Positions 17,301-32,942 are shown, counted from the first letter of the stretch. The stretch is 64,000 bases of DNA from an uncultured Acidimicrobiia bacterium (GCA_963795125.1 CAWCGQ010000001.1:407024-471023); one strand, 5' to 3'. The notes: generated from the letters alone by a model not told the origin. Numbers and translations are program-made.

Positions 17301-17472
17301 CCTTGCGGCCGGGCTCGCGCTGGTGCCAATCGCGATGTCGGCGGGTGAGGCGGGCAGTGAAATCCAGGCGCCGATGGCCCTCGTGATCCTGTGCGGCCTG
17401 GCGAGCTCAACCGCCTTGAACATGATCGTCGTGCCGGTGCTGTACGCGCGTTTTGGCCGGCGGGTCAGCTGA
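14385..17472 (+). CDS. heavy-metal efflux RND pump (CusA/CzcA family); one extra G at about 14939-14940
   Basis: MIDGLIRWSL...PDLTAPAVTILVEAPGMDPLEIE is in ORF 14313..15179. It joins ORF 14947..17472 at GGEQKQ|YEVVVEPSRL once one G is removed. The TM4 region LAIAIGELVDDAIIDVENV is closer to the CusA-type pattern than to the CzcA DFG pattern. Confidence 0.9.
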
Positions 17473-18931
17473 TGTGAACTGCGCCCGCGTCGGTAACCAG
17501 CGGCCACCTGAGGATGAATTCCGATCCCCGTCCGGGGCCGTCACTGCGCGCGGTGATCGAGCCGCCGTGCATTTCGACCAGCCGCCTGGACACCGCCAGT
17601 CCGACACCCAGGCCGCCCGCGTCCGCGCTCGCGCGAACGAACAAGTCGAACAGGGTGCTCAACGTTTCCGGCGCCAGGCCGGTCCCGGTATCGGAGACGC
17701 GAATCACACCGGAGTCGCCTTCCCGCTCCACCACCACCGCGATCGAGCCTCCGGGCGGCGTGTAATTGATGGCGTTGTTGAGAACGTTGCCCAGCGTCTG
17801 GCTGAAGCGTTGGGTGTCGATGTCGATTTGGAGCAGGTCCGATCCCAGCGCAACGGACACGTCCTGCTGTTTGGTGTGCGCTGCCGCACGGATCTGTTCG
17901 ACGGCCTCGCCGGTGACATCGCGCAAGTCGACGCGCTGCTTGACCAGATCGATTGAGCCACGGATGACGCGGGATGCGTCCATCAGATCTTCGACGAGCG
18001 TGGTCATGTGGGCGAGTTGACGCTCCAATCGCGCGCGCACCCGATCCAACGCCTCCGGATTGGCCTTCAACACCGCGACCATCATCGTCGCGGCGTGCAA
18101 GGGCTGACGCAGCTCATGGGCGATCACCGCCAAGGCCTGGTCCTTGGTTCGATTGGCAAATTCCGCGGCGCGGCGAGCCGACTGTTCCGCCACCGTCGCG
18201 CGGTGCCGCTCGCGGGCGAGAATGGCCAGCTCCTCGTTCGCCTCGAGTAAATGCTGCTGGAGTTGGCGCTCGGACTCGTGCTCGGGTTCGCCGAGGAGGA
18301 AGCAATCCTCGCCCGTCAGCTGCAGCTGGCACGCGAGCGTCAACGGATGACCCTCGCCGTCGGTGAAATTGAGCAACAGTCGATCCGGCGGCGGTTCTCC
18401 GCCCAGAATCCGGCGCAAGCGCTCGGCATCCGCCTGCGTCAGGCGCGAAAAAATCGCGGTTCCGAGAAGGTCCCGCGTTTCAACGCCAAGGGCTCCCCTC
18501 ACCGCTTCGTTCGCGAAGAGCACCGTCCCATCCAACCTGACGCGAAGCACGTGAACGACCCGTGAGCGTTCCAACAGCCTGCCGATGAGGGCAGCCCGGT
18601 CGACCGCGAGGTTGAACATGTCCGGGCTGTCGCCGGACGACAGCCGCTCGAGCTCGACCAGCTTGGTGTAGGTCGGGTCCAACTTCAGGCCGGCGGGCAT
18701 CCAGGCGTGCGACGCTCGATGCGCGGGACTCGCATGCCAGGCCCGAAAAGTTGCCGAATCCGTCCAGCGGGTGACGAGATAAAAGACCGTCGGATCCGTG
18801 GTCTCCGTGAATGTTTCAAGCCCAAGAAAGCCCGGCCACGCGTCGACCAGTCGTGGCCGATTCTGGAATGCTGCGGCGACCTCGTTCTCGGTGGCATTCG
18901 CAACGCGGAAACGCGAGACGGCCAGGATCAT
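17465..18931 (-). CDS. cytosolic sensor histidine kinase with N-terminal ABM (IsdG/MhuD-like monooxygenase fold) domain, PAS, HisKA, HATPase_c
   Basis: ORF 17465..18988, likely start MILAVSRFRV at 18931. The ABM-like segment is ...PGFLGLETFTETTDPTVFYLVTRWTDSATFRAWHASPAHRASHA. H-box AHELRQPLH. ATPase motifs NVLNNAINYTPPGG, DTGTGL, GLGVGLAV. No TM segment. Confidence 0.8.
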   Translation of the reverse strand: MILAVSRFRVANATENEVAAAFQNRPRLVDAWPGFLGLETFTETTDPTVFYLVTRWTDSATFRAWHASPAHRASHAWMPAGLKLDPTYTKLVELERLSSGDSPDMFNLAVDRAALIGRLLERSRVVHVLRVRLDGTVLFANEAVRGALGVETRDLLGTAIFSRLTQADAERLRRILGGEPPPDRLLLNFTDGEGHPLTLACQLQLTGEDCFLLGEPEHESERQLQQHLLEANEELAILARERHRATVAEQSARRAAEFANRTKDQALAVIAHELRQPLHAATMMVAVLKANPEALDRVRARLERQLAHMTTLVEDLMDASRVIRGSIDLVKQRVDLRDVTGEAVEQIRAAAHTKQQDVSVALGSDLLQIDIDTQRFSQTLGNVLNNAINYTPPGGSIAVVVEREGDSGVIRVSDTGTGLAPETLSTLFDLFVRASADAGGLGVGLAVSRRLVEMHGGSITARSDGPGRGSEFILRWPLVTDAGAVHIS

Positions 18932-18938
18932 TGATCGA

Positions 18939-19967
18939 TCACTCCGCCAGCATCGCGACGGCAGACTGCACGTCGGCAGCATAACCATCGGCGCCAGTCA
19001 TCTGCCACTGGTGCTCGACGCGGAATGCCGCGCCGCCCACGACGATGCGCGGCGAGTGATCCAATGCGCGAACCGCGGCGACGAGGCCCGAAGCCTGGTG
19101 GAGGTTGAACAGCATGGTGACAGAGATCCCGAGCACATCCGGTTTGGCGTCTCGAACGGCGGCGATGATTGCCGGCAGCGGAAGGTTGCTCCCCAGGAAC
19201 TGCACGCGCCATCCCTGCGCTTCGAGCATGTCGCCCACCATCAGCGCGCCGACGTGATGAAGCTCCCCGGGGACACCGGTCAGGACGACCGAGCCCCGGT
19301 CGACATCCGGGCGTTCGATGCGCTCGAACAGCTGCGCCATCACGAACTGGGTCACGGCGGTTGCCATGTGTTCCTGCGCGACCGTAATCGCGTTTCGCTC
19401 CCACTGGCGGCCGACCTCGTAGAGGCCGTCCTGCAGGACGTCGCTGTAGACGGCTTCGATCGTCGCGCCGGTGCGCAGGGCTTCGGTCGCGATGGTCAGG
19501 GCCACTCGGCGATCGCCACGCACGGCCGCTTGCACGAACATCCGGCAGGTGAGCGCCAAGGGCCCGTCGGTTTGTCCCGTGGGCTGCTCGGCCTGTGGAT
19601 GTTCGTCGGGAAAGCACATGAAGCGGGCAACGACGTCCTGCTGTTCGTTGGACAGGAGTGCCGCTGCGGCATCCTGCACTTGCGATAAATTTTCGCGCAG
19701 AAAGCCCCGGTCGATACCGCGGGATTCGAGCACGCGTGTCGTCCACTGCACGTAGTCCTTGTAAGCTGCCGGCGAGTCGCTCTCGATTGCGGCGGCGAGA
19801 AACTGAATGTGGAACCGTGCGTCTTCGATCCCCGCCAGTCGCGCACGATCCCCGTAGCGCGCCACCCAGTCTGGATGACGTGTCAAGAACGCATCGGTGA
19901 CGGCCTCGGCGATATGCTGTTCTTCACGGCGCAGGGTACGGATCAAGGCAGAATTGCGGGAGATCAT
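18939..19967 (-). CDS. cobalamin (B12)-binding domain protein with N-terminal helical (globin/phycobilisome-like) domain
   Basis: ORF 18939..19967 (342 aa). Helical-bundle cap region (VYSDVLQDGLYEVGRQWERNAITVAQEHMATAV). Rossmann B12 region with GELHHVG (D/ExHxxG-type), ...GISVTM..., ...VVGGAAF. It ends 7 nt before the kinase start. Confidence 0.75.
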   Translation of the reverse strand: MISRNSALIRTLRREEQHIAEAVTDAFLTRHPDWVARYGDRARLAGIEDARFHIQFLAAAIESDSPAAYKDYVQWTTRVLESRGIDRGFLRENLSQVQDAAAALLSNEQQDVVARFMCFPDEHPQAEQPTGQTDGPLALTCRMFVQAAVRGDRRVALTIATEALRTGATIEAVYSDVLQDGLYEVGRQWERNAITVAQEHMATAVTQFVMAQLFERIERPDVDRGSVVLTGVPGELHHVGALMVGDMLEAQGWRVQFLGSNLPLPAIIAAVRDAKPDVLGISVTMLFNLHQASGLVAAVRALDHSPRIVVGGAAFRVEHQWQMTGADGYAADVQSAVAMLAE

Positions 19968-20048: not shown

Positions 20049-20993
20049 CTACTCCAGACCCGCCGCGGGCGGCACCGGCAGGCCGGCCGCCTGATGCCTG
20101 GCATTGACGATCTCGGAGTCCATCTCGGCGCCGATCAGGATGGCCAGCCCCGAGATGTAGAACCAGAGCAACACAATCATGATTCCCCCCACCGCGCCGT
20201 AGGTCGCGTTGTAGTCGGCAAACGACCGCACGTAGAACTTGAGGGCGAGCGAACTCACCAGCCACAGCGTGGTCGCGGTCAGCGCGCCGGGCGACAGCCA
20301 TACCCAGTCGTGATCGACATTGGGACCGAAGTGATAGATCAGGCCGATGGCGGTGGACACGAGCACGAAGGCCACGGGCCATTGCGCAATCTTCCAGGTC
20401 CACTCGAACGCCGTGCCGAAGCCAACCGTCTGCCCAAGATAGGTGGCGACCGAGGGGCCGGCGAGGATGAGGGAGAGCGACGTCAGCACGAAGAGCGCCA
20501 GCGAAAGGGTCAGCGCGATCGCGAGCAGCCGCATCTTCCACCAGGGCCGCGCTTCTTCCGCGTCGTACGCCTTGTTCAAGGTGTTGACGATGGCGACGAG
20601 CGCCGCCGAACTGCTCCAGATCGCACCGACCACTCCCATGGTGAGGATGCCGCTATTTTCGGAATCGCCCAGCCGGAGCATCTGGTCGCGGATGAATTCC
20701 CGCACTTCTACCGAGACAAACGGCGTCAGCAGCGAGGTCAGGTCGGCCGTGAGGTCCTGCAAGGGGAAAAAGCTCGCCACGGCGAGGAGGAAGAGCACCG
20801 CGGGGAACAGCGACAGGAAAAAATAGTACGCCAGCTGGGCAGCAAGGCTGAAACAGTCGTCGTCCAGCGTTTCGCGGCCCGTACGCTTGAGCAGTTCCCA
20901 CCACGAGATGGGCAGTGTGTACGCGGGTGGCAATGTTCGTCGCGTGGCGGGCAAAGTTCGGAACTGTCCTCTCGTGTGTGGCGATGAAGGCAC
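20049..20993 (-). CDS. YihY/BrkB family inner-membrane protein
   Basis: ORF 20049..20993 (314 aa). It has LAAQLAYYFFLSLFPAVLFLL and several TM segments ending in ...LLWFYISGLAILIGAEMD, typical of the YihY family. Confidence 0.8.
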   Translation of the reverse strand: MPSSPHTRGQFRTLPATRRTLPPAYTLPISWWELLKRTGRETLDDDCFSLAAQLAYYFFLSLFPAVLFLLAVASFFPLQDLTADLTSLLTPFVSVEVREFIRDQMLRLGDSENSGILTMGVVGAIWSSSAALVAIVNTLNKAYDAEEARPWWKMRLLAIALTLSLALFVLTSLSLILAGPSVATYLGQTVGFGTAFEWTWKIAQWPVAFVLVSTAIGLIYHFGPNVDHDWVWLSPGALTATTLWLVSSLALKFYVRSFADYNATYGAVGGIMIVLLWFYISGLAILIGAEMDSEIVNARHQAAGLPVPPAAGLE

Positions 20994-21141: not shown

Positions 21142-24100
21142 TTGCCCGTAGTTCGCCGGGCCCTGCGCTGGGGCGGTCTCGCGATCGCGGTGGTGCTGCT
21201 TTTGACGGGTATCCTGCTGGCGCTCGCTCACTCATCGACCGGGCGCCGTTTCGTCGCATCGCAGCTCACTCGCATCCTGGCCGAGCAGCAGATCGAATTT
21301 CGTTCCGAGAACCTCAACTACAACCTGCTGGATCTCTCGTTCACCGTGCAGAACCTGACCGTCCGCAGCGCGGCCCGCCCGGACGCCCCGCCGTTCCTGG
21401 TGGCGGACCGACTGACCGCGGACATCGGACTCCTGGCGCTGTTGAGAGGCCGCTACGAAATCGAGTCGGGTCAGGCCTCGGGTCTCACCATCCACTATCT
21501 CGTCGAGGAAGACGGCCGCGACAACCTGCCGCGAACGCCGACCGACCCGAACGCGCCGAGCGAGCCGATCGATTTCCTGGTCGACGCCCTCCAGGTGTCG
21601 GATACCCGAGTGCGCTACGAGAACCGCGCGCAGCAGGTGGACGTGGTGATGCCCGTTGAGTCGCTGCTGGTCGACGGCAATCCGCTCACCGGGCGCCACG
21701 CCGTAGTCCTTCGCGCGAGCGGCGGCACCGCCCGCGCCCAGGGCCGGGAGGTGCGGCTTGATCGACTCACGGCCGACCTCAACCTGGGCGATGACGACGT
21801 CCGGTTCGAGACGGTGGCGCTTGAATCCGAAGGTTCGGGCGCCGAGCTCTCGGGCACGTTGACCGGCTTCGACCAGCCGACCCTCGATGTGCGCCTGCGA
21901 ACCGACCTGGACGTCGAACGCGCCGCGCGCCTCGGCGGCCTCGGCGATCCGGCAGGCGGCCGCCTGATCGTCGATGCAACCGCGACCGGGCTGATCGAAG
22001 CCCTGAAGGTGTCGGCTAAGATCTCGGGGCGCGAGCTGCGGTTCCGCGAGGTCGATCGGGTCGGGCTCGAGGCCGCGGCCCGCTTCGATGCGTCGACTGG
22101 AATGGCGGCGGCGGATTCCCTGAACATTACGGCGCCGTGGGGCGCGCTATCGGGCAGCGGCGTGGTCGCCACGAAAGACGGTGCCTCGCGTGTCAGCCTG
22201 CGCGCGGAGGGCGTCAACGCGGGTCAGCTGATGCGTGCGCTCGGGATGACGCAGACGGCGGCGACGCGCGTAAGCGGCTCCGTCGAGGCGCAGTGGCCGC
22301 TCCTCGACTATGCGCGGGCTTCGGGGACGGCCGACCTGTCGCTCGCGCCGACCGAGCGCCGGCCTTCGGCGTCGCGGATGCCGGTCGGCGGAAGAGTGCG
22401 GGTGCGGGCAGACGAGGGCCGCGTCGTCGCGCAGCTGTCCGGCGTGACCGCGGCCGGCGCGCGCGTCGATGGACAGCTGTCGCTTCGTGATCGGACCAAT
22501 ATTGGCGGCACGCTGTCGGCAGCCGTGCCGAGCGTTGCCGACACGACGGCGCTACTCGAAGCATTTCTCGGACGCCCTGCGGGCACGCTCTCGCCAGTGG
22601 CCCTGTCGGGGTCGCTCACGGCCGACGTGCGCGTGGGCGGCACCGTGTCCTTGCCGTCAGCGGCGGCGTCGATCTCGGCGCCGGCCCTTGGCGCCGGCGA
22701 TCTGAGAAATATCTCCCTGTCGGCCGAAGCCCGCTACACCACCGACGCCGTCGCGCTCGACGGTCTCGACATCGCCTGGGAGCACTCCCTTCTGAAGGCA
22801 TCGGGCCGCGTCGGCCTGACGGGCGCGCAGCCGATCGCGGCGCGCTTCGACGCGCAATCGCTCCGCATCCCCGACGTGCTGGCCGCGATCGGGCAAAGCG
22901 ACATTGCGGCAGGCGGCACCATTGCGATGAGCGGTACCGCCTCGGGCACCGTGGCTCGCCCGCGCGCGTCGGCCACTCTTCACGCCGTCGATCTGGTGGC
23001 GATGAACGAATCGCTCGGCACCCTCGAGGCCGGCGTCGATCTGGATGGCCGGCAGGTCACGATCGAACGGATGGTGCTCGACAAGCCTCAGCCCGGGACC
23101 GACGGTCAACTCACGGCGTCGGGCCACTACAACATCGACACCGGCGCTTACGATTTCACGCTCGACTCGCGCGACCTCTCGATCGTCGGATTGACGTTGG
23201 CCGACGGACGTCCGGTCCGCGGCGATGTCGCACTGAGCGGCGGCGGCGAGGGGACCACCGCCGACCCGGCCGCGCGACTCAAACTGGCGCTGACGGATCT
23301 TCGCCTCGCCGAGGACCTGCTGGGACGCGTCGAGATCAACGGTCAGGTCGCTCAGCGGGAAGCCGTGGTCGATCTCACCGCCGATCGATTCAACACCAGT
23401 GTGGATGCCCGGATCGGCATCGAGCAGCCCTATCCCACCACGCTCAAGGCGCGCTTATCGGGACTGGATCTCGCGGCGCTGCCCGTCCGCATCACCACGC
23501 CGCTCACCGGGACGGTAGTGGCCACCATCGATGCCGAGGGCGACCTTGCGGATGTGACCGGCGGTCGCGCCCGCGCCACGGTCACGGCGATGACCGGCAC
23601 ACTGAACGGGCAGCCGTTCGCACTGGACGGCCCCGCGGACCTGAGCTACGCGTCTGAACGACTCACGATCGATCGCCTGATCGTCACGGCGCGTGATTCG
23701 AACGTCTCGCTGAGCGGCTCGCTGCCGTTATCCGACACGGATGGTCCGGGCGTCATCAATCTCGATGCCCACGCCAATCTCGCCACGCTGGCCGAGTACG
23801 CGCCGCCGGAGACAGCGCTCGCGGCGCAAGGCGCGCTGGATATTTCCGGAACGCTACGCGGGACCTTCGCCAGGGTGGAACCCGACCTGACGCTGACGAT
23901 TGCCGACGGCTCGATCACCACCCCCGGCATGGCACCCGGTCTGTCCAATTTGTCGGCGCGCGCCCGCGTCATCAACGGTGCGGCATCGATCGAGCAGCTC
24001 ACGGCCAATTTCGGCGCCGCCCTGCTGGAATTGACCGCCCGACTGCCGCTCTCGCTCCTGCCGGAGCTGCCCGTGGCGATCCCGCGCGCCACCGGCGATG

Positions 24101-27100
24101 CACAGCTGACCGCTCGTGTCAGAGATTTCGATCTTGGCTCCGCCCCGGGGGCACCCGACGACCTGAGCGGCAAGATCAGCCTCACGGCCGACCTCTCGGC
24201 AGCGCGCCCCGAACTGCAGGCGATCACCGGTTCGATCTCGTTTCAGGATCTGTCGGTCACTTACCAGCGACTCGAACTGGCGCAGCAGGGTGTGTCCGCG
24301 GTGCAGCTCGCCGACGGCGTGGCGCGCATCTCGCAATTTGACCTGGCGGGTTCGGCCGGCAATCTCCGCGCGAGCGGCACCGTGGGGCTCAGCGACAACG
24401 CGCCGCTTGATGTCGCCGTCAACGGCGCGCTCGATGTCGGCGCGATCGGAAGCCTGAGCCAGGGCTTGCTGGCGGAGGGCAAGGCGGCGCTCGACATCGC
24501 CGCCCGCGGCACCTTGACCAAGCCGGACCTGAGCGGCTCCGTTGTGATGTCGGACGTCACCGTCGCGATGGACGATCCGGACATCGTGGTCGCAGGACTC
24601 GAGCTGCGAGCGGACCTGGCCGGCGATCGGATCACGCTGACGACGCTCGAAGGCGACCTGAACGGCGGCCGGATCTCGGGCGGTGGCGGTTTGGCAATCG
24701 GCAGCAACGGTCTTCGCGATGTCGACCTGCGCTTCACGGCGGACGACGTCGCCATGTCGGCGCCGCTGGATCTGCGCAGCCTCTCGACCGCCAACATCGA
24801 GGTCACCGAACGGGCGGGCAAAATCCTGGTCGGGGGCAAGGTCACGATCAAAGAAGCCGGCCTGACCGGCGACATCAAGATCGACTCCGACGTCATCGCC
24901 TCGCTCACCGGCCCGCGCACGCTCGACCTGACTGAAGAGCGTAACGAAACCCTGGAGCGGGTCGAGTTCAACGTGCAGATCGTCACCGATACGCCGATGG
25001 TGATCGACAACAACCTGGCCCGCGCCGAGGTCACGGCCAACTTGCGTCTGCTGGGGTCTCCGTACGAGTTTGGACTGTCCGGCCGGATGTCCATCCTCGA
25101 AGGGGGCGAGATCGTGCTGAACGAGCGAAGCTACCAGGTCGAGAGCGGCATGGTCACGTTCCTGGACGAGCGGCGCATCACCCCCTCGATGAACCTGCGG
25201 TTGACGACCTCCGCGAGCAACTACGACGTCACGCTCGCCGTCACCGGCGAACCGGGGAAGACCGAGACGAGCCTCACGTCGAGCCCGGTGCTGCCCGACA
25301 CGGACATCATGGCGCTGCTCGTCACCGGCCGGACGCTCGATGAGATGCGCGGCGAAGAAGGCGACGTGGCGAAGGAACAGGTGCTGTCGTACTTGAGCGG
25401 CCGCGTCGGGTCGCGCTTCGGACGCGGGTTGGAACGGGCCACCGGCCTCAGCGACGTGCGGATCGAGCCGAACCTGATCGCGAACGAGACCGATCCGAGC
25501 GCCCGGCTGACGATTGGCCAGGATCTGACCGACCGGCTGAAGCTGATCTACTCGACCGACCTCGCCGACAGCAGCGACCGGGTGCTGGCCGCACGCTACG
25601 ACGTGACGCGCCGGTTCCGGACCAACGCTGTCAACCAGAGCGACGGCAGCTACCGCTTCGACTTCCAGCACGATGTCCGCGCGGGCGGGCGGCCGGAGCC
25701 GGGCCGGCTGCCACGATCCCGGCCGACGATTTCCGCGATCGAGATCCCCGCGACCGACGGCCTGAGTGAAGCCGAGCTTCGCGAGCGGCTCGGCCTCGAG
25801 GTGGGGAAGGAATTCGATTATTTCTCGGCTCGCAAGGGCGTGGAACGGATCGAGAAGGCGCTCAGAGAACAGGGCCGTCTCGAGTCCCGGGTGCGCCTCG
25901 AACGCACGCCGACCGGCGACTCCGTCGCGATCGCATTGCGAGTGCGCTCGGGCCCGGTCGTGAACATCAGCTTCCTGGGCGTGACGCCGCCCTCGAAAAC
26001 TGCCGACGAAGTGACGCGTCAGTGGACGCGCGGGGTGTTCGACAACCAACGTGGCAGTGACGCGGCCGAGGCCCTGCGCGAGTGGCTCATTCGCGATGAC
26101 TACCTGGCGGCAAAGGTGGACTACCGAATAGAAGAAGCCGGCGCCGATGCGCGCCGGGTCGTCTTCACCGCGACCCCGGGCGGGCAGTTCGACACGGTCG
26201 AGACGGTCTTCGTTGGAGCGTCCGGCATCTCCCCGGATGTCCTCGACGACATCGTGGATGAGCAGAATCTCGAACTCGAGCTCTTCACCGACCCGGTCGT
26301 CGTGTCGGAACTCCTGCAGCGCTACTACCGGGAAGAGGGCTACCTGGTCGCGGAGGTCGACACCCCGCGCATCGAGTACGACGGCACCATCGCGCGGGCC
26401 GTGATCGCGGTGCGTGAAGGACCGAAGTTCACGGTGGGCACCGTGTCGGTGTCAGGGAACAGCGTGATCAACTCTTCCGTCTTGCTGGCCGACCTGCCGG
26501 TCGTGGCGGGGGAGCCGTTCCTGCCGCGGGCCGGCGCCAACGCGCAGGAACGCATTCGCGAGTTGTACTGGGATCGCGCCTACAACGGTGTGGACTCGGA
26601 CTACGAACTGCGGCCCAATCGGGACACCGGCCGGGTGGACGTCGCTTTCACGATCGAGGAGGGCCCCCAGTCGATCGTGGCCGGCGTGTTCATCGACGGC
26701 AACGACCGCACGAGCACCCGGCTGGTACGCGAGCAGGTGGCCCTCGAAACCGGCCAGCCGCTCGATCTGTCAATCCTCGGGCAGTCGCGTCGCCGGTTGT
26801 ACGACACCGGGGCGTATTCGATTGTCGACATCACGCGGACGCCGGTGACCGAGCCGGAGGCCGCCGCGCCGTCGCCCGAGTCTGCCACCAACGCCCCTGA
26901 GCCGCCGGCCGTGTCGGCGGGAGCCGAGAAGCCGGTGCGGCTTGATGTGGCCATCCGGGAGGTACAGCCGTTCCAGATTCGCTACGGCGCATCGTTCGAC
27001 ACGGAGAGCGGCCTCGGCGGCATTCTGGACGTGACCAACCACAATTCGCTGGGGAAGGGCCGCGAGATCGGCCTGAGAACGCGCTACGCGGCGAGACTGC

Positions 27101-27984
27101 GCGAGGCGCGGCTGTCCTTCGGCCAGCCCGCGTTGCGATATGCGCCGACCCAGACCTCGGGCAGCCTCTACTACCGCGAAGAGCGCAACACCGAAAGCGC
27201 CCTCGCCGATGCGTTCAACGTCGACCGCTTCGGCCTGTCGGTTCAGCGTGAGCGCAAGCTGAAGAACGCCTACGTCTGGAGCTACGGCTACCGCTACGAG
27301 CGGGCGCGCAAGTTCGGCGCCGCGGCCGACAGCCTGTTCGACAAGACGATTGCCGTCGCGCCGCTGACGAGCACCTTCACCCGCGAGGCGCGCGACGAGA
27401 TGCTCGACGCCTCGACCGGCTCGTTCACCGCGCACGCATTCTCGTTCTCCCCGAACTGGCTCGGGTCGGACGAGCCGTACCTGAAGTACTACGGCCAGTA
27501 CTTCCGCTACTTTCCGCTACGTGCGCCGGCGCGCAAGCGCTTCACCAACGAGATCCTGCGGCCCAGGTTCGTCTACGCGGTGGGCGCCAGGCTGGGTCTG
27601 GCACGCGGCGTTGGCGGGGAGGTGCCGGAGACCGAGAGCTTCTACGCCGGCGGCAGCACGACGCTGCGTGGATTCGAGCAGAACGCCGTCGGCCCAATCG
27701 GCCCGGATCGCATTCCGACCGGCGGCGACATGATGCTCGTGATCAACAACGAGCTCCGCTTTCCACTCGTCAGCATCGTCGACGGCGTCGGCTTCCTCGA
27801 CGTCGGCAACGTGTTCGACCAGGTCAAGGATTTCTCGTTCGCCGACATTCGCCGGACCGCCGGGGTGGGCCTGCGCGTGCGCACGCCGTGGCTGCTGATT
27901 CGCGGCGACTACGGCTTCGTGCTGGACCACCGGGCGGGTGAAGGACGAAGCCGCCTGTATTTCAGCATCGGCCAGGCCTTCTGA
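21142..27984 (+). CDS. single-ORF fusion: TamB/AsmA-like translocation-and-assembly protein (signal anchor + long beta-rich region + DUF490-like end) joined to POTRA repeats and an Omp85/BamA/TamA-type beta-barrel
   Basis: Uninterrupted 2280-aa ORF. N-terminal anchor LRWGGLAIAVVLLLTGILLALA. DUF490-like end ...PSARLTIGQDLTDRLKLIYSTDL...DGSYRFDFQHDVR (to about 25680). About 16-aa linker. POTRA-like units from ISAIEIPATDGLSEAELRERLGLEVGKEFD. Barrel ending ...FYAGGSTTLRGFE...GVGLRVRTPWLLIRGDYGFVL...RLYFSIGQAF*. Confidence 0.85.
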   Translation: MPVVRRALRWGGLAIAVVLLLTGILLALAHSSTGRRFVASQLTRILAEQQIEFRSENLNYNLLDLSFTVQNLTVRSAARPDAPPFLVADRLTADIGLLALLRGRYEIESGQASGLTIHYLVEEDGRDNLPRTPTDPNAPSEPIDFLVDALQVSDTRVRYENRAQQVDVVMPVESLLVDGNPLTGRHAVVLRASGGTARAQGREVRLDRLTADLNLGDDDVRFETVALESEGSGAELSGTLTGFDQPTLDVRLRTDLDVERAARLGGLGDPAGGRLIVDATATGLIEALKVSAKISGRELRFREVDRVGLEAAARFDASTGMAAADSLNITAPWGALSGSGVVATKDGASRVSLRAEGVNAGQLMRALGMTQTAATRVSGSVEAQWPLLDYARASGTADLSLAPTERRPSASRMPVGGRVRVRADEGRVVAQLSGVTAAGARVDGQLSLRDRTNIGGTLSAAVPSVADTTALLEAFLGRPAGTLSPVALSGSLTADVRVGGTVSLPSAAASISAPALGAGDLRNISLSAEARYTTDAVALDGLDIAWEHSLLKASGRVGLTGAQPIAARFDAQSLRIPDVLAAIGQSDIAAGGTIAMSGTASGTVARPRASATLHAVDLVAMNESLGTLEAGVDLDGRQVTIERMVLDKPQPGTDGQLTASGHYNIDTGAYDFTLDSRDLSIVGLTLADGRPVRGDVALSGGGEGTTADPAARLKLALTDLRLAEDLLGRVEINGQVAQREAVVDLTADRFNTSVDARIGIEQPYPTTLKARLSGLDLAALPVRITTPLTGTVVATIDAEGDLADVTGGRARATVTAMTGTLNGQPFALDGPADLSYASERLTIDRLIVTARDSNVSLSGSLPLSDTDGPGVINLDAHANLATLAEYAPPETALAAQGALDISGTLRGTFARVEPDLTLTIADGSITTPGMAPGLSNLSARARVINGAASIEQLTANFGAALLELTARLPLSLLPELPVAIPRATGDAQLTARVRDFDLGSAPGAPDDLSGKISLTADLSAARPELQAITGSISFQDLSVTYQRLELAQQGVSAVQLADGVARISQFDLAGSAGNLRASGTVGLSDNAPLDVAVNGALDVGAIGSLSQGLLAEGKAALDIAARGTLTKPDLSGSVVMSDVTVAMDDPDIVVAGLELRADLAGDRITLTTLEGDLNGGRISGGGGLAIGSNGLRDVDLRFTADDVAMSAPLDLRSLSTANIEVTERAGKILVGGKVTIKEAGLTGDIKIDSDVIASLTGPRTLDLTEERNETLERVEFNVQIVTDTPMVIDNNLARAEVTANLRLLGSPYEFGLSGRMSILEGGEIVLNERSYQVESGMVTFLDERRITPSMNLRLTTSASNYDVTLAVTGEPGKTETSLTSSPVLPDTDIMALLVTGRTLDEMRGEEGDVAKEQVLSYLSGRVGSRFGRGLERATGLSDVRIEPNLIANETDPSARLTIGQDLTDRLKLIYSTDLADSSDRVLAARYDVTRRFRTNAVNQSDGSYRFDFQHDVRAGGRPEPGRLPRSRPTISAIEIPATDGLSEAELRERLGLEVGKEFDYFSARKGVERIEKALREQGRLESRVRLERTPTGDSVAIALRVRSGPVVNISFLGVTPPSKTADEVTRQWTRGVFDNQRGSDAAEALREWLIRDDYLAAKVDYRIEEAGADARRVVFTATPGGQFDTVETVFVGASGISPDVLDDIVDEQNLELELFTDPVVVSELLQRYYREEGYLVAEVDTPRIEYDGTIARAVIAVREGPKFTVGTVSVSGNSVINSSVLLADLPVVAGEPFLPRAGANAQERIRELYWDRAYNGVDSDYELRPNRDTGRVDVAFTIEEGPQSIVAGVFIDGNDRTSTRLVREQVALETGQPLDLSILGQSRRRLYDTGAYSIVDITRTPVTEPEAAAPSPESATNAPEPPAVSAGAEKPVRLDVAIREVQPFQIRYGASFDTESGLGGILDVTNHNSLGKGREIGLRTRYAARLREARLSFGQPALRYAPTQTSGSLYYREERNTESALADAFNVDRFGLSVQRERKLKNAYVWSYGYRYERARKFGAAADSLFDKTIAVAPLTSTFTREARDEMLDASTGSFTAHAFSFSPNWLGSDEPYLKYYGQYFRYFPLRAPARKRFTNEILRPRFVYAVGARLGLARGVGGEVPETESFYAGGSTTLRGFEQNAVGPIGPDRIPTGGDMMLVINNELRFPLVSIVDGVGFLDVGNVFDQVKDFSFADIRRTAGVGLRVRTPWLLIRGDYGFVLDHRAGEGRSRLYFSIGQAF

Positions 27985-27990
27985 CCTCGT

Positions 27991-28488
27991 TCAGCGTTTG
28001 CCCTCGAGCTCGCTGATTAACGCCTTCATCTCGGCTATCTCGCGGCGCTGAGCCTCGACGATTTCCTCCGCCAGCTTGCGGACCCGAGGATCGGTGAGGT
28101 GCGCGCGTTCGCTCGTGACGAGGGCGATTGAATGGTGGGGAATCATCGCCTTCATCCAGGACACGTCTTCAACCGTCGCCTGGCTGCGCACGAGCCAGAG
28201 CGACACCGCGAAGACAATGATGCTGCCGCCGACGATGGCCAGGTTGGCGTTCGTGTTCTTGTACATGCCAGCCATGAAGCCGAGCATGATGATCGCCATC
28301 GCGGCTCCCATCACCAGCGCCATATAGGCACGGGTTTCGCTGAAGAAGACATGATCGAGCTGGTAGGTGTTCAGGTACATCAGCCCAAACATCACGACCG
28401 TCGACGTGACAATCATGGCGGCGAATCTGGGGTAACTGCTCATTTGGTGTCCCGTTCCAGGCGAGGCGTGGCCCTCATGGTGCGTCAT
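27991..28488 (-). CDS. membrane-anchored DUF305 family protein
   Basis: ORF 27991..28545. The likely start MTHHEGH at 28488 overlaps the msrA stop (ATGA). Three or four TM segments, then MKAMIPHHSIALVTSE, the DUF305 signature. Confidence 0.75.
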   Translation of the reverse strand: MTHHEGHASPGTGHQMSSYPRFAAMIVTSTVVMFGLMYLNTYQLDHVFFSETRAYMALVMGAAMAIIMLGFMAGMYKNTNANLAIVGGSIIVFAVSLWLVRSQATVEDVSWMKAMIPHHSIALVTSERAHLTDPRVRKLAEEIVEAQRREIAEMKALISELEGKR

Positions 28489-29109
28489 TGCGTCGGCGGC
28501 TTGCCCCACAGCTTTTCGAGGCGCTGCTCGCGCCCGCAGCTCCATTTGTAGAATTTGTAGCGCACCGGGTTCTTCTTGTAATAGTCCTGGTGATAGTCCT
28601 CGGCCGGGTAGAACTCGCCGGCGGCGACGATCTGCACCGGGATCGACTTGGCAAGCTGCGCGCCGACCCGCTCCTTGGAACTGTCGGCCTGCTGCTTTTG
28701 ATCAGCCGAGTGATAGAAGATCGCCGGCCGGTACTGCGGACCCCGGTCGCAAAATTGACCGCCGCCGTCGAGGGCATCGACGTTGCGCCAGAACACCTCG
28801 AGCAGGCGTGCGTAGGTCACCTTCGCCGGGTCGTAAACCACCTGCAGCGCTTCGGTGTGGCCGGTGTCGCCCGCTCGAGACCTGCTCGTAGGTCGGCGAC
28901 CTGGTTTCTCCGCCGGTATAGCCGGAGGTCGTGGAGATCACGCCATCAAGCTCGTCGAAGGGCGGCTCCATGCACCAGAAGCACCCGCCCGCGAATGTGG
29001 CCACCTCGGTTGCAGCCCCACCCGATTGAGCGGCGGAGTCAGATGAGCCGACGGTGAGGCACAAAACAACGAGCGCGCTGCAGGTGGCGAAACGAGGTGC
29101 GAAGTTCAT
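28485..29109 (-). CDS. msrA: exported peptide-methionine (S)-S-oxide reductase MsrA; one extra base in CCC/GGG at 28870-28872
   Basis: Signal peptide plus [12 protein letters not shown]...GYTGGE in ORF 28702..29109. [18 protein letters not shown]...[12 protein letters not shown] in ORF 28485..28841. Removing one G restores [21 protein letters not shown]. Confidence 0.9.
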
Positions 29110-30573: not shown

Positions 30574-32942
30574 CTAGAGCTGAGCGCGCCGCAGTCGCAG
30601 GGCATTGGCGATTACGGACACCGAGCTGAATGTCATGGCGGCACTCGCGATCATGGGGCTCAGCAGGATGCCGAACCAGGGATAGAGCGCGCCGGCCGCC
30701 AGTGGCACGCCGAGGGTGTTGTAGACAAACGCGAAGAACAGATTCTGGCGGATGTTCTTCATCGTGGCTGCGCTCAAGCGGCGGGCGCGGACGATGCCCC
30801 TGAGGTCGCCCTTGATTAACGTGACCCCCGCGCTTTCCATCGCGACATCGGTTCCGGTGCCCATGGCGATGCCGACGTCGGCTTGCGCGAGCGCCGGCGC
30901 GTCGTTGATGCCATCGCCCGCCATGGCGACAACGGCGCCGGCGTCCTGGAGCCGCTTCACCACCTGGGCCTTCTGATCCGGCAGGACGTCGGCCTCGACC
31001 TGATCGATGCCGACACTTTTCGCAACCGCATCCGCGGTGGTGCGGTTGTCGCCGGTGAGCATCACCACCGTCACGCCTTGTTGTTGCAGTTCGCGAATGG
31101 CCTCGCGCGCGGTCTCCTTGATCGGGTCGGCGACGCCAATCAGGCCCGCCGGCTTGCCGTCAATGGCGATCAGCATCACCGTCTGGCCCTCGCGCCTCAA
31201 GGCGTCTGCCCGGTCGACGAGCGCCGGCGTGGCGATACCGAGGCTGTCCATGTGGCGGAGGTTGCCAATCGCCACCTTTCGGCCGTCGACCATGCCGGCG
31301 ACGCCCTTGCCGGTGCTCGACTCGAAGTCCGTGACCGTCGAGATCTGAATGTCCCTGTCGCGCGCCCCCGCGACGATCGCGGCGGCGAGTGGATGCTCGC
31401 TGACGTTTTCGAGGCTCGCGGTCAGCCCCAACACGGTCGCCTCATCGAACCCCGGCAGCGGTTCGATGGTCGTCAACTTCGGCTTGCCCTCGGTCAGCGT
31501 CCCGGTCTTGTCGACGACCAGCGTCGTGACCTTCTCGAGAATTTCCAGTGCCTCGGCGTTGCGAAGCAGCACGCCCAACTCCGCGCCGCGGCCCGTCCCG
31601 ACCATGATCGACATCGGCGTCGCCAGACCCAGCGCACAGGGGCAGGCGATGATCAACACCGCAACGGCGTTCACCAGCGCGTGCGCGAGCCGCGGCTCGG
31701 GACCGAAATAGGCCCACACCAGGAACGTCGCGACGGCCACGACGATCACGATCGGCACGAACCACCCGGACACCGTGTCGGCCAGGCGCTGAATCGGCGC
31801 GCGTGAGCGTTGAGCTTCGCTGACCATGCGGACGATCTGCGCGAGCAGGGTCTCGGCCCCGACTCGTTCGGCGGTCATGACGAACTGCGCCGGTGCCGTT
31901 GACCGTACCGCCGGTGACCTGCGCGCCGATGGTCTTCTCGACCGGGATTGGCTCGCCCGTCACCATCGACTCGTCGATCGTCGTGGTGCCCTCCGAGACG
32001 ACGCCATCGACCGGGATGCGCTCGCCGGGTCGGACCCTGAGGCGATCGCCCACCTGCACCTGCTCGAGCGGAACATCCTGTTCCGAGCCATCGGCGTTCA
32101 CCGTGCGCGCGGTCTTGGGCGCGAGGCCCAGCAGGTTGCGAATCGCGGAACTGGTTCGACTTCTCGCCCGCAGTTCGAGCACCTGGCCAAGCAGCACGAG
32201 CACGACGATCACCGCGGCCGGCTCGAAGTACACGGCGACCTGATCGCCCATGCGAAACGACGCTGGAAACAGGTCGGGGAAGATGGTCGCGACCACGCTG
32301 TAGCCGTACGCGGCGCCCACGCCCAGCGCGATCAGCGTGAACATGTTCAGATGGCCCGACGTGACCGAGGCCCAGCCGCGTTCGAAAAACGGCCGGCCGC
32401 CCCACAGCACCACCGGAGTGGCGAGGGCGAACTCGATCCAGTTCTGCCAGCCGGCGGGCAGCAGATGGAGCAGGTGCCCTGGGAGCATGTGCGCGACCAT
32501 GAAGGCGAGAATCGGCGCGGTCAGCGCGAGCGACCACCAGAAGCGCCGTGTCATGTCCGCCAGTTCTTCGTTCGGCTGCTCCTCGAGGGTGACGTTGACC
32601 GGCTCGAGCGCCATCCCGCAGATCGGGCAGGAGCCCGGGCCCCGTCTGGCGGATCTCCGGATGCATCGGGCAGGTGTATTCGGCGTCGGCATCCGCCGCC
32701 GCGGCCGGTGTCGCTCCGCCGAGAAACTCACCCGGGTTGGCTTGAAACCGCTCAAGGCACGAATCGCTGCAGAAGTGATACAGCTGACCGCCGTGTTCGA
32801 CGGTGCCCACCGCATCGGCGGGCGCTATCGTCATCCCGCAAACCGGGTCGGTCACGTCGTTCGAAGCTTGAGTCTCGTGTTGTTGATGATGCGTCGCCAC
32901 TGGCGGCCTCCACACTGATGAACGCGACGCCGGGGAGTTCAT
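30574..32942 (-). CDS. copA: copper-translocating P1B-type ATPase with N-terminal YHS/TRASH-like and CPMHPE-type metal-binding segments; two single-base frame breaks (about 32633 and 31885)
   Basis: N-terminus [35 protein letters not shown] and [15 protein letters not shown] (ORF 31875..32942). [11 protein letters not shown] plus TM/actuator domain (ORF 31442..32815). [44 protein letters not shown] (ORF 30574..31878). Confidence 0.9.

Follow-up and report, generated by a model that had tools for sequence, protein, structure and literature searches.

How phospholipids, together with some proteins, are brought to the outer membrane of bacteria is a long-standing question in which TAM and AsmA-like bridges are central. 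In Escherichia coli TAM is encoded by two genes in the order tamA-tamB. TamB comprises an N-terminal anchor, a long beta-taco and a DUF490 domain with helices, six strands and a beta-signal, and its Omp85 partner TamA has three POTRA domains and a 16-strand barrel. According to two structural reports the last TamB strand pairs with beta1 of TamA, and the two proteins dock mainly through this hybrid barrel, together with coupling-loop contacts to the POTRA domains (PMC12800296, PMC13119328). It is debated whether the TamB-Omp85 hybrid barrel works as a stable form or exists only transiently. In Borrelia burgdorferi TamB (BB0794) and the sole and essential BamA (BB0795), which has five POTRA domains, are encoded in the order tamB then bamA and are described as a hybrid BAM-TAM of two separate proteins (PMC5582053, PMC11361582, PMC13382580). 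In the AF3 model of the last of these reports six TamB strands are positioned on beta1 of BamA, and POTRA1 comes near POTRA5.

Among Acidobacteria, Heinz et al. (2015) described a canonical BamA and a second, TamB-associated BamA copy encoded by separate genes in the order bamA-tamB, and proposed this TamB-dedicated paralogue as the evolutionary origin of TAM (PMC4494059). Their study contains no mention of a fusion and refers only to a few TamB sequences "of very long length". Lineage-specific TamB proteins with a different Omp85-family partner are also known as TamL-TamB of Bacteroidota, in which TamL is a lipoprotein (PMC12045153), and as TIC236-TOC75 of plastids; these are separate polypeptides, and no fusion is reported. 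A single chain with an N-terminal functional region, POTRA and a C-terminal 16-strand Omp85 barrel is found in the type Vd protein PlpD, which carries a patatin as its passenger, a single POTRA domain and a signal peptide that is cleaved off.

The window analysed here, a stretch of 64,000 nucleotides taken as a whole, encodes a TamB protein and an Omp85 protein in one polypeptide. The initial annotation had described the gene as one uninterrupted ORF, and this was borne out: no internal stop was found over 2280 residues, GC3 was 0.85 as is typical of coding sequence in the window, and the protein was 100% identical to the database protein P0001 from a 2.62-Mb contig. The sequence landmarks LKLIYSTDL (25537-25563), YRFDFQHDVR (25651-25680) and YFSIGQAF were all located where they had been placed. 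The gene is monocistronic, as both flanking genes are on the opposite strand. Instead of a two-subunit tamA-tamB operon the locus thus has one ORF in which TamB precedes Omp85, the order of the two Borrelia genes and the reverse of that in the acidobacterial bamA-tamB pair. An HMM search of the window in six-frame translation revealed no second Omp85 or TamB gene, and neither the tRNA nor the Rfam scan gave any hit there. The features of the locus are collected in the table.

Table. Features of the TamB-Omp85 fusion gene, its product and the neighbouring genes, in window coordinates.
Feature	Residues	Position	Strand	Remarks
BrkB/YihY gene		20049-20993	minus	divergent, upstream of the fusion ORF
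TamB-Omp85 fusion ORF	2280 in total	21142-27984	+	complete, TTG start, stop included
N-terminal signal anchor, GGLAIAVVLLLTGILLALA	11-29	21172-21228	+	after an RR..R stretch
AsmA/TamB-type beta-rich region	30-1170	21229-24651	+	upstream of DUF490
DUF490 / TamB C-terminal domain	1171-1508	24652-25665	+	Pfam PF04357, AF2, Foldseek
Helical segment in DUF490	~1386-1422	25297-25407	+	AF2 secondary structure, partly low confidence
Six terminal amphipathic beta-strands	1438-1514	25453-25683	+	AF2 secondary structure
Arg/Pro/Gly-rich linker (~14 residues)	1515-1528	25684-25725	+	AF2: no secondary structure
POTRA1	1529-1602	25726-25947	+	AF2, beta-alpha-alpha-beta-beta
POTRA2	1606-1678	25957-26175	+	AF2
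POTRA3	1685-1758	26194-26415	+	AF2; collinear with E. coli BamA from residue 224
POTRA4	1764-1839	26431-26658	+	AF2; best Pfam POTRA stretch 1764-1841
POTRA5	1843-1940	26668-26961	+	AF2; includes Pro/Ala-rich disordered beta2-beta3 loop
16-strand Omp85 barrel	1944-2280	26971-27981	+	PF01103, AF2, Foldseek
L6 motif (V/L)RG(F/Y)		27655-27675	+	within the Omp85 barrel
Barrel C-terminal beta-signal YFSIGQAF		27958-27981	+	end of protein
DUF305 gene		27991-28545	minus	convergent, downstream of the fusion ORF

Proteins of TamB length with C-terminal POTRA and Omp85 domains were searched for in the databases. The family search returned 110 clusters and then about 100 further ones, each of 2,100-2,400 residues and of the same architecture, at 25-79% identity; more than 215 full-length homologues share it. 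All of the best 150 representatives at 50% identity (150/150) match without interruption from DUF490 through the linker into Omp85. A genome scan was run with the junction alignment of the closer clade, the alignment over both clades being too divergent. It confirmed 118 loci. Each of the 80 that were kept spans the junction; they belong to Vicinamibacteria, Luteitalea, Bryobacterales, Solibacter, Sulfopaludibacter and Terriglobia MAGs. Six-frame HMM mapping placed both halves on a junction-spanning ORF in every locus but the heavily fragmented L028. Thus in the orthologues, too, the junction carries no stop codon followed by a separate start. Named sources were all Acidobacteriota, and the window was most like sequences of Vicinamibacteria. 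The distant clade was outside the genome scan, so that its taxonomy comes from a few NCBI names only. Over 23,005 pairs the pairwise identities of the TamB half and of the Omp85 half were correlated with r = 0.957, which fits one old fusion. We concluded from these comparisons that the gene is a genuine, conserved and anciently fused gene of Acidobacteriota, and that the fusion is not accidental. Acidobacteriota are among the most abundant phyla in soil. A natural TamB-Omp85 fusion was not mentioned in the literature searched (TAM evolution, a TAM review, TamAB structures, TamL and Borrelia), and seems never to have been described before.

Both domain assignments of the initial annotation were upheld, as the Pfam TamB/DUF490, POTRA and Omp85 models all scored above their gathering thresholds. 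The proposed N-terminal signal anchor also stood: residues 11-29 are the sole strongly hydrophobic 19-residue window in the whole protein (Kyte-Doolittle 2.59, the top value), and the layout agrees with that of E. coli TamB. A comparable N-terminal hydrophobic segment was found in 91% of 215 family members. The anchor presumably stays uncleaved. Residues 30-1170 gave weak Pfam matches to DUF748, YhdP and AsmA, all under their cutoffs, and an NCBIfam TamB match over residues 530-921; TamB_N, DUF748 and YhdP matches occur across the family in precomputed annotations. From these similarities we presume that the region forms a continuous beta-taco groove. The whole TamB part comprises about 1,515 residues, compared with 1,259 in E. 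coli TamB.

The DUF490 domain was recognized by PF04357 with 109.5 bits against a cutoff of 22.4 (E 3e-31) over profile positions 5-381 of 381. A phmmer search of the TamB half against PDB sequences gave no match, hence structure comparison was needed for this half. AF2 models of DUF490 show beta-taco strands, and the best Foldseek matches of the model were all E. coli TamB: 9xdc_B (E 2.7e-13), 9xdd_B (1.4e-11) and 5vtg (1.2e-5). The first two are from cryo-EM structures of E. coli TamAB (PMC12800296). The helical segment is placed as the TamB helices are, ahead of the terminal strands, and this architecture of helices followed by strands is described for EcTamB and BbTamB in two reports (PMC13382580, PMC13119328). 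Beta-taco, helices and six strands are thus all present in the models. The proteobacterial TamB equivalog NF047952 was far from its cutoff (54.2 bits vs 825).

The six terminal strands are homologous to the TamB strands that enter the TamA or BamA barrel. The final one (residues 1504-1514, YRFDFQHDVRA) is the retained beta-signal, which has become internal. In TamB as described by Heinz et al. (2015) DUF490 is the last domain and the chain finishes with an OMP-like beta-signal whose terminal residue is aromatic; here 766 further residues follow the beta-signal. The motif in the family is [YF]-[DE]-F-R-H-[DE]-[VLI]-x-F-G-G, with Phe at the terminal aromatic position in 133 of 215 members and Ala in the window protein. 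The acidic residues equivalent to EcTamB D1200 and D1252 were conserved in a manual alignment. When DUF490 was modelled alone the six strands had pLDDT values of 73-83, compared with 72-89 in the context of residues 1171-2280, and the last strand comprised 7 residues at about 82 alone and 11 residues at about 88 in context. This difference is at most a weak hint of a barrel contact in the model.

At the junction the linker of 16 residues given by the initial annotation was confirmed as AGGRPEPGRLPRSRPT at 25681-25728, and residues 1515-1528 within it were unstructured in the AF2 prediction. The model of residues 1171-2280 (pLDDT 81.5) consists of beta-taco, helical segment, six strands, linker, five POTRA domains and barrel, so that DUF490 strands, linker and POTRA1 follow each other in that order. 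The pLDDT of the linker was low to moderate, with residues 351-354 of the modelled fragment below 50. The absence of an in-frame start codon and of a signal peptide at the junction, claimed earlier, was verified as well: no in-frame ATG, GTG or TTG was present between residues 1488 and 1554, and in no frame did the junction contain a hydrophobic segment or a start with a cleavable signal peptide for a separate Omp85 or BamA protein.

The POTRA model PF07244 scored 91.7 bits against a gathering score of 21.3, and AF2 predicted five beta-alpha-alpha-beta-beta units, the number found in BamA. The Pro/Ala-rich stretch lies at about 26848-26934 as annotated, but it is not a spacer before the barrel. 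In the AF2 model it belongs to the beta2-beta3 loop within POTRA5, where fragment residues 735-756 had a pLDDT below 50 between strands 722-731 and 759-770; the length of this loop ranges from 8 to 62 residues across the family. The barrel is a complete Omp85 barrel: PF01103 matched residues 1968-2280 with 148.4 bits (cutoff 24, E 4.5e-43), R and G of the L6 motif were invariant in 215/215 family members, and the protein ends in an aromatic residue, the C-terminal F being kept in 213/215.

The initial annotation had placed POTRA repeats and a complete barrel in this half, which held. The half is not TamA-like. Its top NCBIfam match was the BamA equivalog TIGR03303, with 253.6 bits below the cutoff of 297.15, while the TamA equivalog NF047950 reached 55.7 bits of the required 625 and TamL 65.9 bits. 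The number of POTRA domains is not the three of TamA. Foldseek returned full-length BamA chains (E ~1e-42, with about 785 residues of the BamA chain aligned), and the Omp85 half is collinear with E. coli BamA residues 224-506. The Omp85 half is thus BamA-like but is not called a canonical orthologue. Compared with the E. coli system the fusion shares the arrangement of the TamB part and an Omp85 partner with POTRA domains and a 16-strand barrel, and differs by its single polypeptide, its five-POTRA BamA-like part and its internal beta-signal. With Borrelia it shares TamB and a five-POTRA BamA, in one chain instead of two. With the acidobacterial second BamA it shares the phylum and a BamA-like paralogue dedicated to TamB.

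Taken together, we consider it probable that the gene encodes TAM as a single chain, that is, an unprocessed bridge from the inner to the outer membrane with the DUF490 strands docked in the barrel of the same molecule. The product would be exported by Sec and stay fixed in the inner membrane through the one signal anchor at its N-terminus, from which about 1,500 residues of TamB-type beta-taco groove would span the periplasm. Through the short linker the chain would run into the five POTRA domains and the barrel, and the latter would be inserted in the outer membrane by the BAM machinery of the cell, using its own C-terminal beta-signal. By homology to E. coli TamAB and to the modelled Borrelia BamA-TamB, the six terminal strands may dock at or in the lateral gate of their own barrel, and the POTRA array would then close the loop from the last TamB strand to barrel strand beta1. 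POTRA1 near POTRA5, as in the Borrelia AF3 model, is the geometry which a linker of about 14 residues requires. Such a bridge across the envelope would be permanent, with both partners at 1:1, and would serve phospholipid transfer, outer-membrane-protein assembly or both. The intact ORF, the domain identities, the conserved fusion and the retained motifs are directly established, and on these a covalent bridge between the membranes is reasonable but unproven; the unprocessed chain, the intramolecular hybrid barrel and the transported substrate we infer. The partner interaction had been described earlier as docking through DUF490 and POTRA. From the E. coli structures, contacts to POTRA are retained through the coupling loop, and a simple DUF490-POTRA docking is replaced mainly by the hybrid barrel. 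Against the single-chain TAM count the Ala at the terminal position of the beta-signal in the window protein and the lack of conservation of TamA K283, the partner of TamB D1252; in a manual comparison with E. coli TamA the fusion was BamA-like at this position.

A natural fusion, kept in hundreds of Acidobacteriota sequences, would imply that the partners can work at a fixed 1:1 stoichiometry and need never separate, and that the TamB beta-signal needs no free C-terminus; it also constrains models such as that of the Borrelia BAM-TAM complex. Polypeptides embedded in both membranes are rare, and this protein would be one of them. It is also relevant to the proposal that a BamA duplicate in an ancestor of Acidobacteria and Proteobacteria gave rise to TAM. 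For structural and biochemical work the conserved TamB-BamA-like fusion offers a two-protein machine that is already joined in a single chain. The fusion joins two known partners, an event of the Rosetta-stone type, and its members are already in the databases with generic names, which makes the finding moderately and not fundamentally surprising.

The first alternative to the unprocessed bridge is a fused precursor, in which a single chain would secure co-export and 1:1 stoichiometry and would then be cleaved in the linker into a two-subunit TamB and Omp85. The closer clade has a conserved PRRxPRxRP pattern in the linker, given for the Vicinamibacteria and Bryobacterales clade as the basic pattern GG-x-P-x-P-R-R-x-x-R-x-R-P; such an Arg/Pro pattern could be a processing or binding site instead of a passive tether. 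In addition, the Phe of the beta-signal followed by Gly-Gly lies exactly at the expected end of an unfused TamB, and an unfused TamB paralogue from the same order has a free aromatic C-terminus (..FFFSY). Over the 16-residue span the family linkers measure 15-30 residues (mode 16) and are rich in R, P, G and A, but the distant clade has not kept the sequence itself, its linkers being Ala/Ser/Pro-rich with 15-30 residues. The linker showed no recognizable protease or autoprocessing motif, and the TAM literature consulted gave no precedent for a cleaved precursor. Cleavage is therefore unlikely in our judgement.

Secondly, the fused Omp85 could be the principal or only BamA of the organism, a core insertase covalently tethered to the inner membrane like a fused version of the Borrelia BAM-TamB and not an accessory TAM. 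If true, an essential insertase would be permanently tethered by the TamB lipid bridge, with one polypeptide anchored in the inner membrane by an alpha-helix and in the outer by a beta-barrel, and outer-membrane-protein insertion and phospholipid delivery would be coupled at fixed trans-envelope sites. The five POTRA domains, the collinearity with E. coli BamA and a BamA score far above those of TamA and TamL are in line with this. Besides the lack of another Omp85 gene in the window, none was found in 82 related loci up to 10 kb from the fusion; as the inspection covered only about 20 kb per genome, the lack of a nearby second Omp85 means little. The BamA score stayed under the equivalog cutoff, and the canonical BamA beside a TamB-associated copy in Acidobacteria, described in PMC4494059, speaks against a sole BamA. 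So does the stand-alone TamB paralogue in Vicinamibacterales, which points to another Omp85 partner acting in trans; at one locus a stand-alone TamB was present without an adjacent Omp85. The C-terminus of the L020 TamB paralogue, used as a query for a separate BamA or an unfused TamB beside the fusion in one genome, returned short fragments only. We regard the role as main BamA as decidedly unlikely.

Thirdly, a secretion system resembling type V was considered, in which the POTRA/Omp85 module would export the N-terminal beta-rich region as its passenger and the hydrophobic segment would be a cleaved signal peptide. The order passenger-POTRA-Omp85 is formally like that of type Vd autotransporters (PMC6604945), and LALA-HS after the hydrophobic segment could suit an AxA signal-peptidase site. 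However, the would-be passenger is a genuine TamB that has DUF490 and ends like TamB, the N-terminus has the layout of a TamB-type anchor, five BamA-like POTRA domains are present instead of one, and Pfam detected no patatin or adhesin domain. This makes export of a passenger very improbable.

The caveat that the assembly is indel-prone was justified, as a frameshift near 14,920 interrupts an RND pump gene of the window and a P-type ATPase is truncated, yet the fusion ORF is intact. An indel that merged adjacent tamB and Omp85 genes into one frame is hardly credible and was rejected, for although broken copies of the fusion occur at several related long-read MAG loci, these breaks lie at scattered positions away from the junction, no separate Omp85 start codon or signal peptide exists in any frame, and more than 215 independent homologues, with identities as low as 25%, have an uninterrupted junction, as do the representatives and kept genome loci. 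One database entry, P0083 (locus L081), had the appearance of a two-gene orthologue, with a TamB of 1,527 residues and an overlapping Omp85 gene of 770 residues. This candidate was rejected; in the DNA of L081 the junction is intact, and a single frameshift lies about 50 codons upstream of it.

The TamB-Omp85 fusion is real, and its domain content is conserved among its relatives. In the window it was encoded by one unbroken reading frame, as the initial annotation had described, and all the sequence landmarks quoted there were recovered (see table). The third-position GC of the ORF was 0.85, typical for genes of the window (67% GC). No start-like codon was found in frame at residues 1488-1554, nor any start with signal peptide at the junction (DUF490 end, linker, first POTRA) in the two alternative frames; the earlier claim that the Omp85 half has no start or signal peptide of its own thus held in all frames. 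Residues 11-29 formed the sole transmembrane-like hydrophobic segment in the whole protein. The gene stands alone, with a DUF305 gene convergent downstream and a BrkB/YihY gene divergent upstream. Synteny was only local, since at the more distant loci L081 and L082 the neighbours differed.

Coordinates of the fusion gene, its parts and other features (window positions unless a locus or residues are named)
Feature	Location	Strand	Remark
TamB-Omp85 fusion ORF	21142-27984	+	TTG start, 2,280 codons, uninterrupted
TamB/DUF490	residues 1171-1508		Pfam E 3e-31
POTRA, best stretch	residues 1764-1841		Pfam E 5e-26
Omp85	residues 1968-2280		Pfam E 4.5e-43
DUF490 end YRFDFQHDVR	25651-25680	+	from sequence
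Arg/Pro/Gly stretch, 16 residues	25681-25728	+	from sequence
Pro/Ala-rich stretch	26848-26934	+	from sequence
Terminal YFSIGQAF	27958-27981	+	from sequence
BrkB/YihY-family membrane protein gene	20,049-20,993	-	divergent, upstream of fusion gene
BrkB/YihY-family membrane protein gene	L002 4,223-5,392	-	divergent, upstream of fusion in nearest relative (Vicinamibacteraceae MAG)
Unfused TamB paralogue	L020 2-628	+	ends ~4.9 kb upstream of fusion gene
Unfused TamB paralogue	L024 2-559	+	ends ~4.9 kb upstream of fusion gene
Unfused TamB paralogue	L084 6,039-10,384	+	stands alone, no adjacent Omp85 gene
CusA/AcrB-type RND efflux pump gene	~14,390-17,472	+	split by frameshift near 14,920
P-type ATPase fragment	30,574-31,878	-	E1-E2_ATPase profile from position 84 and HAD hydrolase domain; without N-terminal part

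The window's protein was identical to a database protein on a 2.62-Mb contig. Homology searches, in line with the database check suggested in the initial annotation, gave over 215 distinct proteins, full-length at 2,100-2,396 residues, whose architecture was the same (79% down to approx. 25% identity). An exhaustive HMMER search covered 1.84 billion cluster representatives, and each of the best 150 matches listed either aligned over DUF490, linker and Omp85 as one stretch or was itself only a fragment of a protein with this layout. When one genome per GTDB species was scanned with a junction profile, 118 loci were confirmed and 80 kept, all 80 with a contiguous junction. HMMs of the two halves were mapped onto the six-frame ORFs of 82 loci; the junction-spanning ORF carried both halves in all except the heavily fragmented L028, and the breaks, confined to long-read MAGs, were scattered. 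The lone candidate for a two-gene orthologue, database protein P0083 in L081, was rejected, as its junction FRHDLRFGGAPAPRRMPRSRPTITAVEV is intact and the frameshift lies ~50 codons upstream of it. With this candidate explained and the junction continuous in every set, an assembly artefact merging two genes is excluded. Pairwise identities of the two halves were correlated (r = 0.957, 23,005 pairs), the pattern expected of a single old fusion inherited as a unit. In the MFD-series long-read MAGs (L004-L009, L012, L016, L028, L031, L081) the gene was in 2-8 pieces, with frameshifts at scattered positions; gene callers therefore report 'TamB' and 'Omp85' as two proteins, so that automated surveys could miss the fusion.

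All source names with taxonomy were Acidobacteriota (Vicinamibacteria, Vicinamibacterales, Luteitalea, Bryobacterales, Bryobacter, Solibacter, Sulfopaludibacter, Terriglobia), apart from two oddly labelled MAG contigs. The nearest relatives shared 72-76% identity with the window's protein, among them the Vicinamibacteraceae MAG that likewise has BrkB upstream. The two contigs, labelled Gemmatimonadales (L001, JBBQHX010000262.1) and Bifidobacteriaceae (L032, CAZDLW010000008.1), carried close copies (junction identity 76% and 52%), and most likely are mis-binned or mislabelled rather than evidence of the fusion outside Acidobacteriota.

The TamB/DUF490 and Omp85 identities proposed for the two halves were confirmed by Pfam matches above gathering scores and by structure matches. 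The N-terminal part gave weak AsmA, DUF748 and YhdP signals. The top NCBIfam match was the BamA equivalog (253.6 bits, cutoff 297) and TamA, TamB and TamL were far under their cutoffs; thus no curated family spans the whole protein. An AlphaFold2 model of residues 1171-2280 (35 aligned sequences, pLDDT 81.5, pTM 0.63) opened with beta-taco strands and a helical segment. Six more strands followed, the last one ending at residue 1514, and after an unstructured linker of ~14 residues came five POTRA units (beta-alpha-alpha-beta-beta) and a 16-strand barrel. The Pro/Ala-rich stretch, earlier read as a spacer, was modelled instead as a disordered insertion within the beta2-beta3 loop of POTRA5, a loop of 8 to 62 residues across the family. 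The Omp85 part is collinear with BamA in sequence and matched full-length E. coli BamA chains over ~785 residues. Modelled separately, the DUF490 part best matched E. coli TamB as seen in the TamAB cryo-EM structures (chain 9xdc_B, E 2.7e-13), followed by 9xdd_B and 5vtg.

Among 215 proteins the last DUF490 strand retained an OMP-type beta-signal, [YF]-[DE]-F-R-H-[DE]-[VLI]-x-F, followed by G-G (His in 196, first Gly in 210, Phe in 133); the window's protein has Ala in place of this Phe. From the Phe position to POTRA1 there were 15-30 residues (mode 16), rich in Arg/Pro/Gly/Ala. The linker reads approximately GG-x-P-x-P-R-R-x-x-R-x-R-P in the closer clade (Vicinamibacteria and Bryobacterales) and is Ala/Ser/Pro-rich and variable in the distant clade (~25-30% identity). 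In a by-eye alignment with TamA and TamB of E. coli MG1655, acidic residues equivalent to EcTamB D1200 (in 'ETDPSARLT') and D1252 (position -7) were conserved. D1252 pairs with EcTamA K283, which was not conserved because the fusion is BamA-like at that site. In the barrel, both the invariant L6 RG(F/Y) motif and a C-terminal Phe of its own are retained; judged by these motifs, the barrel should be a normal BAM substrate.

The closest systems are all two-protein, whereas here there is one chain: E. coli TamAB, Borrelia BamA-TamB and the acidobacterial bamA2-tamB gene pair (Heinz et al. 2015, PMC4494059). In E. coli a hybrid barrel forms by pairing of TamA beta1 with the last strand of TamB, and a coupling loop also binds POTRA domains (PMC12800296; PMC13119328). 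The Borrelia AF3 model has six TamB strands on beta1 of a five-POTRA BamA, with POTRA1 near POTRA5 (PMC13382580). All these docking elements are present in the fusion in identical order, and by analogy a single-chain TAM is the best-supported reading. The N-terminal anchor would hold the chain in the inner membrane, the TamB groove of ~1,500 residues would span the periplasm, and the chain would terminate in a BamA-like barrel of its own, at whose gate the six DUF490 strands may dock. The five POTRA domains would make a closed loop from the last TamB strand to beta1. We infer an unprocessed chain, an intramolecular hybrid barrel and, as cargo, phospholipid and/or outer-membrane proteins. Six-strand confidence was 73-83 with DUF490 modelled alone versus 72-89 in context, and the last strand had 7 versus 11 residues, at most a hint of barrel contact in the models.

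Besides the fusion, Vicinamibacterales genomes have a TamB paralogue of the conventional, unfused kind, whose C-terminus is a free aromatic beta-signal (...GIDVIFFFSY, then stop). Its existence implies a second TamB system needing a partner in trans. This free terminus, together with the basic linker pattern conserved in one clade, would suit a precursor cleaved in the linker, but the pattern is absent from the distant clade and we consider cleavage unlikely. That the fused Omp85 is the organism's only BamA is favoured by its BamA-like character but is unlikely: it scores under the equivalog cutoff, Heinz et al. report two BamA copies in Acidobacteria, one canonical and one additional, and the stand-alone paralogue implies another partner. 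Type Vd-like secretion of the N-terminal region does not fit its TamB identity and the five POTRA domains.

Public annotation names the proteins 'TamB domain-containing protein', 'BamA/TamA family outer membrane protein' or 'YaeT'. Heinz et al. describe no fusion, noting only a few TamB sequences 'of very long length'. The bacterial DUF490 length classes in a survey from 2026 extend only up to 1,650-1,700 residues, and a 2024 TAM review, the TamL paper (PMC12045153), the AsmA review and two 2026 structure papers make no mention of a natural TamB-Omp85 fusion. A description was not found in openly available full-text literature; as far as searched, the sequences are in databases but not described. 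The fusion joins known partners, yet occurs widely within a major phylum of soil bacteria, is topologically unusual, and is directly useful for current TAM and BAM mechanism questions.

The caveat of an indel-prone assembly proved justified by the RND pump gene. Its N-terminal ~180 residues (MIDGLIRWSLGH...) are out of frame with the 841-residue ORF 14947-17472, whose ACR_tran match begins only at profile position 187, confirming indels in the assembly, or genome. The P-type ATPase fragment probably represents a further gene with a frameshift or truncation. No tRNA genes or Rfam families at gathering threshold were found across window 1-64,000. An unusual sensor pairing lies at 17,465-19,967 (-): next to a B12-binding-domain protein is a histidine kinase whose N-terminus carries an ABM (antibiotic biosynthesis monooxygenase-like) domain.
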